Shown piece by piece: positions 15,793 through 26,102 of a DNA stretch of 64,000 nt (the first letter of the stretch is position 1; every line of letters begins with the position of its first letter). The notes beneath the pieces were generated by a model. That model was not told the DNA's origin. It worked only from the letters and a program-made list of their open reading frames with translations, and made no database searches. The position numbers and the translations under genes are program-made. Source of the DNA: Escherichia coli (GTDB lineage Bacteria; Pseudomonadota; Gammaproteobacteria; Enterobacterales; Enterobacteriaceae). Location of the stretch: NCBI RefSeq assembly GCF_024298765.1, contig NZ_CP101210.1; one strand, 5' to 3'.

Positions 15793-17084
15793 CAGGGCAA
15801 GATTACGAAAGCCCGCACCCCGCAAGGACTGACGCCAGATAGTTTCTGTCCATGGCTGCTTTTCGCATCTTACGTCTTAACCCTGCCTTGAATACCTTAT
15901 CATTCGTCAAAATATTAATAGCGATGTGCCGTATCCCTGAAAATAATTCTGCTGCATTTCCTCTTCTTATTTTGCAGTCGTCTTCATTCATTACCACGTC
16001 CAGACGCCAGTGCAGCTTATTCTCCACGTGCCAGTGATTTCGGATCGCTGTGGCGAACTTTTCTGCGGTTAAATCAGCAGAACTGATATAATATCTGACC
16101 GTCATTTCTGGCTCTTTCTTTTGTTCTGCTATTATGGACCGAAAGGAGACTGCCACGCATAATTTCTTCAGTCCTTTCCATTCAAACGTGAAATCAATAA
16201 GTTCATCAGGGACATCACAAACAATATGAAGACGGGTTTCTTCTCTGCCGTGACTCTTTTCACTAATTGAGTAACTGTCGTGCTCTGGATTATTTAATTC
16301 TTTCAGCGGAAATTTTTCCTCAAAGGCTTTATTAAGCCGCCACCTGATTTCCTTTTACAGCGAATAAATAATCACCTCCCTGTTTTTGTATCTTCTCTGC
16401 AATATCTTTCTGGCAACTCATCGCATCAGTTGTGATGATTTTTCCTTTAATATCCAGCATGTTAAGAAGTTCAGGGATAGCTGTAATTTCATTGGATTTC
16501 TCATCCGTCCTGATCTGTCCGATGACCAGACTGTGCATTGTTGAGAACGCACTAATGACATGAATCGCTCCCCTGCGGCGACTCTTGTCATAAGAATGCC
16601 GGAGCGTTTTTCCATCAATTGCAATAACGTCTTTATCATCTGAAGAATGGCAGTCACGCATCCAGTTAATAAAGCACTCGTGAAATTTTGCAGGACTGAT
16701 ACAGGATACAACTCTGGCAATGGTATCGTGAACAGGAATACCATTTTCAAAATCACCATATTGCTTCAAAAAATCGAGATGTGTTTCCCCAAAATCCTCT
16801 ATATCTTCCCAGCCTTCTGCACCAGAAATAACGGCACAAATAGTCAACAGTAGAATATCCGACAATTTATGTTCCACTTTCCAGGCTTGTCTGTAATCGG
16901 GGACAATAGAAATATGTTCCATCAATTTTTTAAGTTCCATTTTGTTCTCCTTAATTATGTAAGGAGTATTTGATCATGTATAAGCAATAAAAAACAGCTT
17001 TAGGTAATGAGGAATATCTCAAATCTTAAACATAAAATGCCAATTATTTAGTACAAAAAAGTAGCGTTACGTGATCTTTCCCTA
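15793..17084 (-). mobile_element. ISAs1-family copy, transposase frameshifted
   Basis: Same ends as the copy at 13087..14388; ORF split into 16332..16940 and 15803..16156; 1-bp difference (gccgccacctgattt vs gccgcccctgattt). Confidence 0.75.
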
Positions 17085-17089
17085 AAACG

Positions 17090-17555
17090 CAGACCCAGTT
17101 GTGCATAGTACACATGGTACGCAACAGCCTGCGGTTCGTGACGTGGAAAGACTATAAAGCGGTAACCCGTGACCTGAAACAGGTTTACCGCGCGGCCACG
17201 GAAGAAGGCGTGTTGCAGGCGCTGGATGCGTTCGGGAAGGAATGGGATGCACGGTACCCGCAGATAAGTCGCAGCTGGCGGGCAAACTGACCGAATGTTG
17301 CCACCTTCTTCGTGTACCCGGAGGCGATCCGAAAGGTTATCTACACCACTAACGCAATCGAATCGCTGAATAGCGTCATCAGACATGCGATAAAGAAAAG
17401 GAAAGTGTTCCCGACAGATGAATCGGTGAAAAAAGTGGTGTGGCTGGCTATCCAGTCAGCCTCACAGAAATGGACGATGCCACTTCAGGACTAGCGGATA
17501 GCCATGAGTCGCTTTATTATCGAGTTCGGTGACCGCCTTGACGGTCACTTCTGAG
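17090..17555 (+). pseudogene. IS256-family (Mutator-type) transposase, 3' remnant with frameshift
   Basis: ORFs 17099..17290 and 17312..17494 carry ...VHMVRNSLRFVTWKDYKAV... and ...IYTTNAIESLNSVIRHAIKKRKVFPTDESVKKVVWLAIQSASQKWTMP... Confidence 0.6.
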
Positions 17556-17947: not shown

Positions 17948-19735
17948 TTATTTACGCCGAGTTATTTTTGCATTATCAGAAAGAACAATATCACCTTTCA
18001 CAGTCAATTCATCTATATGGTATCGAGGGTTTGTTACCCACTCTAATTGCTCGTTAGGTACATCTGTTTCCACATAATCTCTACCTTTCCCACGACCTAT
18101 TTGATATTTCGCCTCTATGTCTACTTGACTGAGTGGTTTTTTATTCGCAGGTTCCAAATATACACGACCGTTATCATGCGCCTTAATTATCCCACTTTCA
18201 GCAATCGCATTTGAACCTTTACGATTAGTATAATGCCGCACACGAGTAGTTCCATTACAGAGCTCTTTTTTTAATCCGAGTGGATCAATATATTTCAGCG
18301 GATTAGGCGCATAAGCATATAAGTTCAACCCACCCGCCAGCCCTATCGGATCCGTTACAATGAACCGCCCGACATCCGGATCATAGTACCTGTGCAGATT
18401 GTAATGCAGCCCTGTTTCCCTGTCGAGGTACTGTCCCTGGTAGCGCAGGTTCTGCTCCACCCTGCCGTGGTCCTTCTCCTGTATCGTGTTACCCCAGACC
18501 TGATACCCCGTCTCCCACACGATTTTCCCGTCACTGTCCGTCATCTCTTCCGGCGCGCCGTTCACATCCGTGTGAAAATACAGTATCCGGTTCGGGCCCT
18601 CTTTGCCCGCCTTATCCACCCGCGCCAGCGGTTCATAACTCCCCGGGTCCCTGTAGATGTACAGGCTGTCTGTTCCCTCCGGCCTGCTCTCCTGCGCCAG
18701 CCGCATTCCGTCCCATAAAAATGCCGTCCGGTTGTACGGTTTACCGTCAGGGCTGATGTGCTGTTTTTCCGTCCGCCTCCCCAGCGCATCGTACACATAC
18801 CGGTACGTTCCCCGCGCTGTCGTCACTTCCACCATCCGGTGTTCCGCATCATAACGGTAACTCTGCGTGCCGCTCCGCCCCTCCTTTTCCACCGCACGGC
18901 CAAATTCGTCGTAACGGTAGTGCACACCACGGTAAGACATCAGCCGGTTGAACGGCACCACGCTGTTTTCTGCCGTGGCCCTTTCCCCCGCGCGCCGCCC
19001 CAGCAGGTTTCCCGCCGCGTCGTACTGCCAGCTCGCCAGATACCCCTCATCCTCCGAGCGGCACGCCGTGATGCGCCCCGTGGGGTCGTAGAAGTAATCC
19101 GTTTCCCCCCGCCGGCTGTGCCGCGTCTTCAGCAGTTCATCCTCGCCACTGTAGCTGTACTGCCGGTCCGTGAACGTCTCCGGTACCACCCCGCGCATCC
19201 CGCTGTATGTCTCCCTGCGCTTCAGCCGCCCGGCGGGGTCGTAAAGCTGCCGCGTGCTCAGTCGCCCCTGACTTCTGAGCACTTCACGGTGCAGGGCGTC
19301 ACGAGTGAACTCGCTGATGACCTCCCGGTCCAGATTTATCTGCTGGAGATGGCCGCTGCCGTAGTACAGATGACGCTGCGTTCTGCCGTCCGGAAAGGTG
19401 GTGGCTGTCCGGTTGCTGAGTTCATCGTACTGATGGGTCAGGACGCCCTGCGCCGTCTCCTCAGTCAGCATCCGCCCCAGTCTGTCGTAACTGAAACGGA
19501 TAATCTCCGGTGCGTCTGTTTCCCCGGCATCCGACCGTCGGCGGCGGATTTCCAGTAACTGGTCTGCCGCATCATGGACGTATTCCGTACGGCTATCGGC
19601 TGTCTCCTTTGCCGTGAGCCGGCCCGCCGCATCACGTGCCAGCCGGTGGCGGATTTCACCGCCCCGGTCCCCGGTGAACACCACTTCCGTGACCGCGTTC
19701 AGCGCGTTGTAGCGGTACGTCTGGCGGCAGCCGTC
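17948..19735 (-). pseudogene. orphan rhs fragment: ~490 core codons + ~105-aa alternative toxin tip, 5'-truncated
   Basis: ORF 17948..19753; homology to main rhs starts at ...CRQTYRYNALNAV; 18392-19735 is near-identical to 20910-22253. Confidence 0.75.
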
Positions 19736-19764
19736 GTGCTGCCAGCGCAGCATCTGCCCAACCG

Positions 19765-19978
19765 CAGCGACACGCCGGTGATCAAAATCAGCGCCAAATG
19801 GCTGAGAGAAGCGGGATTTGAGATCGGCACGGGCGTTACCGTGAAGATCTCGGAAGGCTGCCTGATCCTGCTTGCAGATAACAACGGAGTACAGGAACTG
19901 CGCAGGGAACTTTATCAGGTTAAACAGTCTGTTAAGGGGATGCGGAACGGGATGTTTAGTATGCTGAACGATAATTAA
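19765..19978 (+). pseudogene. SymE-family gene, C-terminal fragment
   Basis: ...IKISAKWLREAGFEIGTGVTVKISEGCLILLADNNGVQELRRELYQVKQSVKGMRNGMFSMLNDN homologous to 14396..14725; N-terminus lost at the orphan rhs junction. Confidence 0.6.
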
Positions 19979-20441: not shown

Positions 20442-23400
20442 TTAGTTGTCGTGTGATGAATTGAATGGGAACGATGTACGTACAGAACCGTCGGGTTTTA
20501 CAACAACCCTTGCCATATCTGGAACTACCTCTGTCCCATCAGGTAAATAACCTCGACTTTTTATATTTGTAGGCAATGGCACATCATGCACACCTGGTCC
20601 TTTTTTGGCAACAGAAGCAATAAAATCAGCAGCAGAATTATCATCGAGATATTGTCCAACTTGATGACCTTTATTTCTGGCACGATCAATTAACTGATTT
20701 GGTTTCATTTTCTGTCCGTGTTCAGAAAAGGTGTGACCGTATGTAGGCTTACTTTTTGGATTTCCCCATTTGAAGTCAGATTTAGGACACAATCCAAGTG
20801 GGTCGATCCATGACAGTGGATTAGGTGCATACTGATATAAGTTTAACCCGCCTCTCAGCCCTATCGGGTCCGTTACCATGAACCGCCCGACATCCGGATC
20901 ATAGTACCTGTGCAGATTGTAATGCAGTCCCGTTTCCCTGTCGAGGTACTGTCCCTGGTAGCGCAGGTTCTGCGCCACCCCGCCGTGGTCCTTCTCCTGT
21001 ATCGTGTTACCCCAGACCTGATACCCCGTCTCCCACACGATTTTCCCGTCACTGTCCGTCATCTCTTCCGGCGCGCCGTTCACATCCGTGTGAAAATACA
21101 GTATCCGGTTCGGGCCCTCTTTGCCCGCCTTATCCACCCGCGCCAGCGGTTCATAACTCCCCGGGTCCCTGTAGATGTACAGGCTGTCTGTTCCCTCCGG
21201 CCTGCTCTCCTGCGCCAGCCGCATTCCGTCCCATAAAAATGCCGTCCGGTTGTACGGTTTACCGTCAGGGCTGATGTGCTGTTTTTCCGTCCGCCTCCCC
21301 AGCGCATCGTACACATACCGGTACGTTCCCCGCGCTGTCGTCACTTCCACCATCCGGTGTTCCGCATCATAACGGTAACTCTGCGTGCCGCTCCGCCCCT
21401 CCTTTTCCACCGCACGGCCAAATTCGTCGTAACGGTAGTGCACACCACGGTAAGACATCAGCCGGTTGAACGGCACCACGCTGTTTTCTGCCGTGGCCCT
21501 TTCCCCCGCGCGCCGCCCCAGCAGGTTTCCCGCCGCGTCGTACTGCCAGCTCGCCAGATACCCCTCATCCTCCGAGCGGCACGCCGTGATGCGCCCCGTG
21601 GGGTCGTAGAAGTAATCCGTTTCCCCCCGCCGGCTGTGCCGCGTCTTCAGCAGTTCATCCTCGCCACTGTAGCTGTACTGCCGGTCCGTGAACGTCTCCG
21701 GTACCACCCCGCGCATCCCGCTGTATGTCTCCCTGCGCTTCAGCCGCCCGGCGGGGTCGTAAAGCTGCCGCGTGCTCAGTCGCCCCTGACTTCTGAGCAC
21801 TTCACGGTGCAGGGCGTCACGAGTGAACTCGCTGATGACCTCCCGGTCCAGATTTATCTGCTGGAGATGGCCGCTGCCGTAGTACAGATGACGCTGCGTT
21901 CTGCCGTCCGGAAAGGTGGTGGCTGTCCGGTTGCTGAGTTCATCGTACTGATGGGTCAGGACGCCCTGCGCCGTCTCCTCAGTCAGCATCCGCCCCAGTC
22001 TGTCGTAACTGAAACGGATAATCTCCGGTGCGTCTGTTTCCCCGGCATCCGACCGTCGGCGGCGGATTTCCAGTAACTGGTCTGCCGCATCATGGACGTA
22101 TTCCGTACGGCTATCGGCTGTCTCCTTTGCCGTGAGCCGGCCCGCCGCATCACGTGCCAGCCGGTGGCGGATTTCACCGCCCCGGTCCCCGGTGAACACC
22201 ACTTCCGTGACCGCGTTCAGCGCGTTGTAGCGGTACGTCTGGCGGCAGCCGTCCGGATTTATCTGCTCCGCCAGACGGTCCAGCACGTCATGGCGGAACC
22301 GGTAGCTTTCTCCGTTCTCGTTTGTCAGCGTGACCAGACGCCCGTAAGCATCGTACCCGAACGCCGTCCTGCGCCCCGTCGCGTCTGTCCGGCTGCGCAC
22401 CCGGCCCTGCCCGTCCCGCTGCCAGCGCGTTATCCTCCCCATCGGGCTGGTGTACTTCACCAGCCTGCCCGCCGCGTCCGACTGGTAATTCACCGTGCGG
22501 CCGTCCGCCAGTATCACCTCCGTCAGGTGGCCGCTGTCGTCATACCCGTAGCGCGTGCTGTGGCTCTGCGCGTCTGTCATCCGTATCAGCCGCGTGCGTT
22601 CGTCGTAGAACCAGGCCGTCTGCGAGCCGGAACAGTCCGTGTGCCGCATGAGCTGCCCGTCTTCGTTCCACTGAAGGTATTTATTCCCCCCGCGCGCATC
22701 GGTTATCTGCACCACCTGGCCGTGGCGGTCATACTGATACCGGGTGTTCTGCTGCAGCGGGTCGGTCACCGCAAGAAGATTGCCGCGTTCATCGTACTCA
22801 CAGCACCAGCTGTTCCCCGCCGCGTCCACCTCCGTTTCCGGCTGGTGCCACACCGGGTGCCACTGTGTCTGTGCCACCCGCCCCAGCGGGTCGTGCGTCT
22901 CCGTGATATGCCCCTGCCGGTCATACACATAGCGCCATTTGCCGCCCTGCGCATCGGTCATTCCCAGTAACAGCCGTTCTTCGTCGCTCCAGCGGAACGT
23001 CGTCACCTGCCCGGCTTCGTCCTGGTACGCCGTCACCTGATTCTGCGCGTCCCACTGATGATAACGCGTGCGCCCCAGCCCGTCCGTCACGCACAGCCTG
23101 CGTGACGCCAGGCTCCACGCCAGCCGGTACTGTTCACCGCTGTCCGTGTGGTGCCCCGTCACCCGCCACGCTGCGTCATCCGGGCCTTCATACCAGCTCC
23201 ACTGGTAATAATACCCTTCGCCGCCCGGCTGGCGGTGCAGGGTCATGCAGTGGTTTTCGTCGTAAGCAAACTCGCGCAGCAGGTGTCCCGTGCTGTCGTA
23301 CACGCCGTTCAGGTCGCCGGCCTCGTCATAGCGGTAACGACGCAGCAGTAAAGGAGCCGTCTCAGGGAAATGCTGATAAATCTGTGTCACCCGCCGGGGA

Positions 23401-25100: not shown

Positions 25101-26102
25101 GTCCCGTTCCCTGTGTGATTAATTCGTCCCGGCTTCCTGCCGCATCCTGAAGCGCAGATTCTTTTTAATTTCAGCCCAGCGCGTCATATCAGCCGGGGTC
25201 AGCGGTGTGGTTCGGGCGTAGGTGAAGGCCATCATGACCCGCTCACCCGGCAATACAAATGCCACCTGACACTGGTACACCTGCTCGTTACCCCGGAGAA
25301 ACTGGCTCTGTATTTGCAAACCGCCTCATTGAGATAATATTCCGTCATAATAGAAGTCGTCCTTTTTAATAAATGAATTATTTATTGACAGGTTCTGTTT
25401 TTTAATCATGAATGTAATGTCTATCACCGCTTTACAGCACTCTTTATCTTTCAAGCCGTAATCACTAATAACATTAAGCAATTACCCATATTTACAATGA
25501 CCGGAACTGATATGCCGTTATGTATTTAACAATCCCAACATATTCACCATACAAATAAAATCACGAGTAACAAACACACTACCGCCTCCATATAAAAAAT
25601 GGACAGCTTATAAAATTGCATCTTGCATAGAAAGGGCTGAGATATCGAGTGTATTTTAATTATCAACTATAAATGTTGAATATTTTCATTAACAGAAACA
25701 CATCTTATCCCATTAGATATGTTAACAATCAATTATTCTTAACATATCACTAAAGTATATATTACTCTCTTTACTATCTGTTTTTATTGCGGTAGCGATA
25801 TTAATAGCAAAATTCGGAATTTATTTAGATGCTGGAATAAGAAAAAGTGATGGCGGCTTTCTCACCTTACCCTGAAGTTTCAGGAAAGTGTGTAAGGAAG
25901 GATGCAACCTAACTGGAGATTTCTGAGGATCTAGTTGCTTAGAGCGACAATGAAGGTGAACGCATCCAGAGTAGTCCTATGAAAGGATACTATTGAAAAT
26001 TGATGCTAAAACAGTGATTAAATGAACAACACCATGGAACCCGTTGATTCAAAACGCCTAAACCAGCCCCCTGATACGAGGCTGGCTTAAACGCGCAGGC
26101 AA

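Follow-up and report, generated by a model that had tools for sequence, protein, structure and literature searches.

The question raised by the window, a stretch of 64,000 nucleotides from Escherichia coli (contig NZ_CP101210.1), is how an intact rhs gene between ybfA and ybgA can be maintained beside a broken chaperone gene. The encoded protein has the N-terminus of prePAAR effectors belonging to type VI secretion systems (T6SS), and Eag chaperones are needed for the stability and export of such effectors (PMC7773334, PMC4524185, PMC8636562). In addition, as far as the summary of Ma et al. 2017 in PMC6730261 goes, the delivery of E. coli Rhs-CT toxins requires upstream vgrG and eagR. An earlier note, made from the letters alone, had reported that no intact chaperone gene precedes this rhs, and this is confirmed here, as no intact chaperone open reading frame (ORF) lies upstream of rhs in any reading frame, the cis eagR gene having been destroyed by an out-of-frame internal deletion. 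Genome-wide facts were taken from the avian-type E. coli strain 104 (chicken, NZ_CP029164.1), which is 100% identical to the window region (megablast) and whose chromosome was surveyed by walking its annotation. The paradox of an effector without its chaperone is mostly resolved because the same genome has an intact EagR and a VgrG at the ansP locus; thus, the claim of a missing chaperone holds for the cis gene but not for the genome. We consider it probable that the ansP EagR and VgrG serve the intact ybfA Rhs effector in trans and that the T6SS encoded at metV fires it.

The broken gene can be followed base by base. The 66-codon ORF starting with TTG directly upstream of rhs (25119..25319, minus strand) is the 3' 40% of eagR, covering positions 77-126 of 127 only of the Pfam DcrB model (PF08786; E-value 2e-5). 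The earlier note had described a small ORF bounded by AT-rich DNA, and the GC content is 0.33-0.34 at 25250-25999, but the DUF1795/DcrB match identifies it as the eagR tail and not as an unrelated ORF; RefSeq, through PGAP, already lists a partial pseudogene at 25119-25322 under the name "DcrB-related protein". NCBIfam, unlike Pfam DcrB, recognizes neither the intact EagR nor the remnant. Further upstream, a 5' stub of 30 nt (25319-25348), with its ATG at 25348, encodes MTEYYLNEAV and is fused, in the wrong frame, to the gene's final ~200 nt (25119-25318), the junction being 25319|25318. As seen in the three-frame translation of 25119-25350, the frame of the ATG gives nonsense after these ten residues and stops after 38 codons, and a second frame reads through the eagR tail, LQIQSQFLRGNEQVYQCQVAFVLPGERVMMAFTYARTTPLTPADMTRWAEIKKNLRFRMRQEAGTN, to its stop codon.

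Compared to intact eagR alleles, 223 bp were lost, the gap opening just past codon 10 and closing at codon ~84; microhomology at the deletion amounts to two bases at most, and the spacers from ybfA to rhs are otherwise colinear with those of the intact alleles. The missing segment spans the positions aligned to Q58 and L66 of SciW, residues that contact the transmembrane domain (TMD) of the effector and that were examined biophysically (PMC7773334; PMC12881460). Since only the DcrB tail is left and the TMD-contact positions are deleted, the remnant is unable to work as a chaperone. Upstream of the eagR start, a single sigma-70-like promoter match was found, which the deletion allele keeps; evidence for it is weak, with one site against 2.9 expected in shuffles, and no terminator-like site was found between the remnant and rhs. 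A foreign eagR as the source of the 5' part of the remnant was also considered and rejected; the spacer upstream is an ordinary haplotype of the ybfA locus, 88% identical to that of RM9387 and also present in R32.

Meanwhile, the rhs gene is intact, and its product follows the order prePAAR, TMD1, split PAAR, postPAAR, DUF6531, Rhs/YD cage, DPxGL and toxin; its translation begins with MEEAFWAARQGDALLH and also holds INSQPAARSGARCTC. The prePAAR motif AARQGDALLH, at residues 7-16, is an exact match to AARxxDxxxH, for which the chance expectation is 4e-5 in the first 30 positions given the protein's own composition (0 of 20000 shuffles), and it is aligned with AAREGDPIKH of Tre23/Rhs1 (PDB 7pq5). 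As Pfam prePAAR_I stays sub-threshold (E-value 1.8), the call rests on this exact motif and on the homology to Tre23/Rhs1. The following TMD1, judged by hydropathy alone, has a mean Kyte-Doolittle (KD) value of 1.62, with all windows above 1.6 over residues 18-77, and by its likeness to SciW-Rhs1NT and Photorhabdus Rhs1 it is the predicted region bound by the Eag chaperone.

The Pfam PAAR_motif matches residues 291-321 (E-value 2e-5; model positions 39-69 of 70), and its first half is matched weakly, at 97-117; as the two half-matches lie far apart, the PAAR domain is split by ~170 residues. This region aligns with Photorhabdus Rhs1, the layout being split in both proteins, and NCBIfam T6SS_PAAR_dom gives 18.6 bits against a cut-off of 124. 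Regarding the second hydrophobic stretch of the earlier note, it is present at residues ~350-395 but corresponds to a postPAAR helix and not to a second classical TMD, class I effectors having one TMD region (PMC7773334): it is weaker than TMD1 (mean KD 0.80, top 19-residue KD 1.35) and aligns with the postPAAR region of Photorhabdus Rhs1. Beyond it, DUF6531 (Pfam, E-value 3e-18), YD repeats (NCBIfam, 3e-65) and Rhs_assc_core (NCBIfam, 2e-28) are recognized, followed by DPxGL motifs at residues 1411 and 1433. The 115-residue toxin tip has no sequence match in Pfam, NCBIfam, PADLOC or PDB, and its AlphaFold2 single-sequence model (pLDDT 53) is not usable.

Against Photorhabdus laumondii Rhs1 (PDB 7q97), the N-terminal 420 residues give an E-value of 2e-37, and the prePAAR/TMD part also aligns to the full-length Tre23 chain 7pq5. 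Of the features that characterize class I prePAAR effectors, the following are found together: the prePAAR motif, one hydrophobic region before PAAR, an Rhs/YD body with DPxGL and a toxin, and an Eag (DUF1795) gene in the genome, the neighbouring copy being a pseudogene and an intact 150-aa copy lying on the same chromosome. Judged by its architecture, the protein is classified as a class I prePAAR Rhs T6SS effector, in agreement with the prePAAR-TM-PAAR N-terminus proposed in the earlier note.

The candidate partners were found ~790 kb away. A search of the genome for T6SS core genes and intact Eag chaperones, which the earlier note had proposed, retrieved the metV cluster and the 150-aa EagR of the ansP locus, where vgrG (664 aa), the intact eagR, rhs (1458 aa), immunity candidates and symE are found. 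This eagR occupies record positions 3373604-3374056 of strain 104 and encodes WP_000141612.1, the same protein as in strain E04, from which it was matched to Pfam DcrB over residues 19-137 (E-value 1e-18); the intact homologue also aligns weakly to SciW (residues 32-124 to 35-127, E-value 0.002). An intact eagR follows vgrG at the ansP locus in strains E04 and M18 as well. Moreover, the two rhs genes of strain 104 share 99.4% nt identity over 4041 bp, with codons 421-1000 identical and residues 93-1415 nearly identical in the protein, and identity between the two loci is 97.8% in the 3' part of eagR taken together with the first 95 nt of rhs. On these alignments, the ansP paralogue matches the ybfA rhs apart from the TMD1 cassette and the toxin tip.

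Upstream of the ansP vgrG, strain 104 also carries an ORF of 176 aa that RefSeq names 'type IV secretion protein Rhs' and that matches the effector domain of Pseudomonas aeruginosa VgrG2b (PDB 6h56, E-value 4e-20), followed by a 118-aa ORF with a weak match to a T6SS periplasmic lipoprotein immunity family. These two ORFs are probably a separate effector/immunity pair.

The one T6SS cluster found in strain 104 occupies the metV tRNA site, with the order tssB, tssC, tssK, tssL, ompA-like, hcp, tssH, vgrG, tssM-like, tssA, PAAR, tssF, tssG, tssJ and tssE. It is Sci-1-like, as its TssK scores 555 bits to the TssK of enteroaggregative E. coli (EAEC; 5m30) and its Hcp 303 bits to EAEC Hcp1 (4hkh). 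A second T6SS was found neither at aspV (4,690,000-4,699,867 unviewed, too short for a cluster), nor at pheU, nor in the 36 kb viewed of the pheV island. When tssC and the ansP vgrG served as queries in distant blastn, each gave one place in strain 104, a search that very divergent T6SS types escape. No T6SS lies in the island on the aspV side, ~95 kb long (record ~4602600-4698000), where a type I secretion system accompanied by a large repeat protein is present, as are pic, a cdiBA-like two-partner system disrupted by an insertion sequence, and sugar-utilisation genes.

As for the distribution of the two alleles, 5426 complete E. coli genomes were searched, using for the deletion allele 80 bp centred on the junction with a full-length match required, and for the intact allele the complete intact eagR joined to 273 bp of spacer from the ybfA side, with coverage of 80% or more. 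The deletion junction is present in 96 genomes and the intact 150-aa eagR at the ybfA site in 95, every inspected case of the latter being the ybfA locus; therefore, eagR has been lost in about one half of those carrying this type of locus. The comparison with rhs loci of other strains, also proposed earlier, thus gave intact alleles at the same site, as in RM9387 and E2, along with the deletion at the very junction of the window. The deletion hosts and sources comprise poultry, human, pig, goat, soil and mouse, from several countries, and some copies have diverged to 96% identity, as in the mouse commensal MP1. This wide spread of the junction, including the 96%-identity copies, indicates that the deletion is real and not recent. 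The ybfA locus lacks a vgrG of its own in all strains seen, including those with intact eagR, and 55 of the 60 deletion-allele genomes among the matches listed (~92%) have a second eagR match elsewhere. In one group of intact-eagR genomes (e.g., E2), an ISEc1 (ISAs1-like) element lies in the ybfA-eagR spacer, ~140 bp upstream of eagR, which may alter expression of the eagR-rhs operon.

Behind the deletion, rhs has been preserved. Nine deletion-allele copies were sampled (strain 104, R32_14_1F, GF130, CT282, MP1, SCU-111, VCSW7, GPEC657 and the window), and all nine have rhs at full length, as an ORF of 1539-1562 codons. Four toxin tips with matching immunity occur among them (126-aa protein, Imm26, barstar-family and 108-aa protein), as do both types of TMD1. 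The ratio of nonsynonymous to synonymous substitution rates (dN/dS) of the rhs core is 0.085-0.10 between deletion-allele copies and 0.105-0.115 relative to loci with intact eagR; at about 0.1, the gene behind the deletion is under purifying selection.

The two types of TMD1 belong to a sharply bounded cassette. Types A and B, the window carrying type A, share 53% nt and 38.5% aa identity, with saturated synonymous divergence (dS), and in strain 104 this stretch of 174-195 bp gives no blastn match between the two rhs paralogues. The flanking DNA is 97.5-100% identical between the paralogues, and in several strains compared the rhs genes bearing either cassette are otherwise 95-100% identical. 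Both types are seen at the ybfA and at the ansP loci, and the EagR proteins native to type A and type B neighbours differ at 3-4 of 150 residues. The TMD1 type was considered as a cause of the chaperone loss and rejected, types A and B both being found behind the same deletion.

In the mechanism that we consider probable, the prePAAR and PAAR parts would cap the VgrG spike and the Rhs cage would hold the C-terminal toxin, against which the small gene next door would confer immunity. The locus would always have drawn on a VgrG from another site. The old 223-bp deletion left the 10 N-terminal and the last ~66 codons of eagR and took away the TMD-contacting helix and loop. The 150-aa EagR and the VgrG of the ansP locus would then stabilize and load the ybfA Rhs in trans, and the loaded spike would be fired by the single metV cluster, provided that the genes are expressed and that the tip acts as a toxin. 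That one VgrG and EagR are common to several Rhs proteins has been proposed before (bioRxiv 10.1101/2024.03.05.583533). In a more specific form, one ansP EagR/VgrG pair would serve two Rhs paralogues with swappable TMD1 cassettes, the loss of the second eagR being tolerated and an H1-type spike being loaded across types, a possibility that we put forward tentatively.

Several observations weigh against service in trans. At least five of the 60 listed deletion-allele genomes have no second eagR and retain rhs, GPEC657 and CT282 among them and GF130 likewise; with rhs intact there, a nearby chaperone gene is not strictly needed over evolutionary time. The EagR allele tracks the TMD1 type in five of five intact pairs (P14/VR, as in WP_001542752.1, with A; S14/AG, as in WP_000141612.1, with B), and the only intact EagR of strain 104 is the allele paired with type B, the window Rhs being of type A; this covariation may be simple linkage. 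Published Eag chaperones are effector-specific, though they were compared between very different effectors (PMC7773334). Regarding the machine, tssH (clpV) of the metV cluster is annotated as frameshifted, its record (1950279-1952904) having 2626 nt (1 modulo 3) with a single-base frame change near nt 1380-1450, which may reflect either true inactivation or a fault of the assembly; further genes in this assembly are annotated as frameshifted too. Between the ansP VgrG and that of the metV cluster identity is only 24%, the former scoring 1092 bits to PDB 9mlp ("Cytoplasmic protein"), 454-469 to VgrG1 of P. protegens and P. aeruginosa and 98 to EAEC Sci-1 VgrG1. As this spike is H1/VgrG1-like and the cluster Sci-1-like, the two may not be compatible; the ansP-type vgrG is present in only ~195-260 of the 5426 genomes. 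Finally, the ORF could look healthy through gene conversion from its ansP paralogue even with no selection acting on the ybfA copy.

That last point leads to the rival with the most in its favour, in which the ybfA Rhs, having lost its cis chaperone, is neither produced stably nor exported any longer; its gene would survive as a silent store of toxin and immunity cassettes, tidied by repeated conversion from ansP, and the true benefit would be the immunity genes and the material for recombination. The dead cis gene fits such a fate, as effectors in model systems are neither stable nor delivered once Eag is lost (PMC7773334, PMC4524185), and so do the core identity of 99.4-100% to the same-genome paralogue, as recent conversion would give, the genomes retaining rhs with no detectable eagR, the frameshift annotated in tssH and the covariation of EagR allele and TMD1 type in intact pairs. 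Against it, the TMD1 cassette and the toxin tip, which are not converted, are still open and intact in all nine genomes, the tips continued to turn over behind the same junction to give four types, and dN/dS is about 0.1 between deletion copies of different lineages. Moreover, the two alleles are equally common, with no visible decay of rhs, and we hold this stranding of the effector to be unlikely.

Alternatively, this Rhs lineage, or type A TMD1, could have outgrown its need for an Eag chaperone, eagR then becoming dispensable, which would suit the frequency of the deletion allele and the few genomes with no close eagR at all. Such independence is far harder to reconcile with the presence of both TMD1 types behind the deletion, with the strong hydrophobicity of TMD1, with the half of carriers that retain intact eagR at the ybfA site and with the further eagR copy in most of the listed deletion carriers; as every studied prePAAR effector requires an Eag chaperone (PMC7773334), it is very improbable. 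As for a sequencing or assembly artefact hiding a truly intact eagR, the several frameshift-annotated genes of the strain 104 assembly might invite it, but a loss of 223 bp is unlike a homopolymer slip and the same junction recurs in 96 independent complete genomes, 96%-identity copies among them, so that this explanation is excluded.

Compared to known systems, the window Rhs resembles in layout the Photorhabdus laumondii Rhs1-EagR-VgrG system (Tre23; 7q97, 7pq5; PMC8636562), with the same N-terminal order, an Rhs shell, a double DPxGL and a toxin. There, EagR binds TMD1 and postPAAR, a second EagR being located at postPAAR (PMC8636562). The E. coli protein differs in the longer insertions of its PAAR region, with ~170 aa between the PAAR motifs, and the ybfA locus in its deleted cis eagR, the absence of an adjoining vgrG and an unrelated toxin tip. 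With the SciW-Rhs1 pair of Salmonella Typhimurium pathogenicity island 6 (SPI-6) and class I effectors (PMC7773334; PMC12881460), the AARxxDxxxH motif, a single hydrophobic TMD region before PAAR and the Rhs body are shared; however, EagR and SciW have low similarity, the E. coli effector is longer (1552 aa compared to ~1200 typically), and its chaperone would act in trans from another locus. The ansP locus of strain 104 has the module layout of the E. coli vgrGO1-EagR-Rhs-CT islands, described by Ma et al. 2017 and summarised in PMC6730261 and bioRxiv 10.1101/2024.03.05.583533, from which the ybfA locus differs in having neither vgrG nor a working eagR; vgrGO1 may be the same VgrG as that of ansP.

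RhsC of K-12 occupies the same ybfA-ybgA site and shares with the window an Rhs core, orphan fragments and remnants of ISAs1 (H-rpt) type. Nevertheless, it has 1397 aa, is 29% identical and starts directly with the PAAR-like MSGKPAARQGD, as the earlier note had stated for these residues and for the shorter length, and it lacks prePAAR, TMD and eagR. The window Rhs also falls outside the classical K-12 type by its different N-terminus and by NCBIfam RHS_core (NF041261 equivalog), where the E-value is 3e-98 yet the score is 330 bits against a cut-off of 2000. The suggestion of a different rhs lineage at the rhsC position is therefore sustained.

The remaining features of the locus follow the usual Rhs arrangement (Table 1). 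From that organisation, the 126-aa gene right after the toxin is the putative cognate immunity gene. The symE gene, antisense, sits between this rhs/immunity pair and an orphan rhs 3' fragment, and a symE follows nearly every inspected rhs locus of this family (ybfA and ansP, in several strains). Over 1407 bp the orphan fragment shares 99.4% identity with the rhs core, and its tip and immunity gene (WP_001039055.1) form the main rhs end and its immunity in strain CT282; therefore, the present tip of the window displaced an older one, in the classical C-terminal displacement of rhs loci. On the ybgA side the locus is bounded by degraded transposase genes of the ISAs1 family (H-repeat type) at 15803-17494, one copy frameshifted and one fragment with an internal stop.

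Table 1. Coordinates of the rhs locus and its surroundings in the window.
Feature	Position	Strand	Basis
ybfA, conserved left border	26103..26309	-	Annotation
Sigma-70-like promoter match, sole one upstream of eagR start	25377..25405	-	Kept in deletion allele
eagR (DUF1795/DcrB chaperone) pseudogene	25119..25348	-	Intact-eagR alignments, three-frame translation, Pfam, PGAP
rhs, intact, 1552 aa, ATG start	20442..25100	-	ORF list, translation, Pfam/NCBIfam domains, Photorhabdus Rhs1 homology
prePAAR motif AARQGDALLH, residues 7-16	25053..25082	-	Exact AARxxDxxxH pattern match; homology
TMD1, residues 18-77	24870..25049	-	Kyte-Doolittle 19-residue windows 1.68-2.21
Divergent TMD1 cassette, codons 28-92, type A	24825..25019	-	Comparison with paralogue
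Split PAAR domain, first motif near residue 113, second at 306	24138..24812	-	Pfam, motif scan
Post-PAAR moderately hydrophobic helix region, residues ~350-395	23916..24053	-	Hydropathy, Rhs1 alignment
C-terminal toxin domain, residues 1438-1552	20445..20789	-	After second DPxGL
Putative cognate immunity gene, 126 aa	20044..20424	-	Right after toxin; no family match
symE-family type I toxin gene	19736..19978	+	PGAP annotation mapped to window
Orphan rhs 3' fragment (older core end and toxin tip)	17948..19753	-	ORF list, annotation, domains
Immunity gene of orphan tip, 108 aa, WP_001039055.1	17620..17946	-	Annotation

The locus is an ordinary variant of a well-known Rhs effector system, and the known picture of Rhs effectors is unchanged by it. 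Its remaining mild interest lies in the balanced presence and absence of eagR, the dimorphic TMD1 and the mismatch between the type of the spike and that of the T6SS cluster. For annotation, the lesson is that paralogous loci should be checked before a prePAAR effector without an adjoining chaperone is called orphaned or dead. The nearly 50:50 ratio of intact and deleted eagR at one site offers ready strains, such as the tractable mouse commensal MP1, which also has a second eagR match, for studying the specificity between Eag and TMD, and these strains also suit asking if one chaperone and spike serve several Rhs effectors. In addition, the dimorphic TMD1 cassette could bear on the role of the TMD in the target cell.

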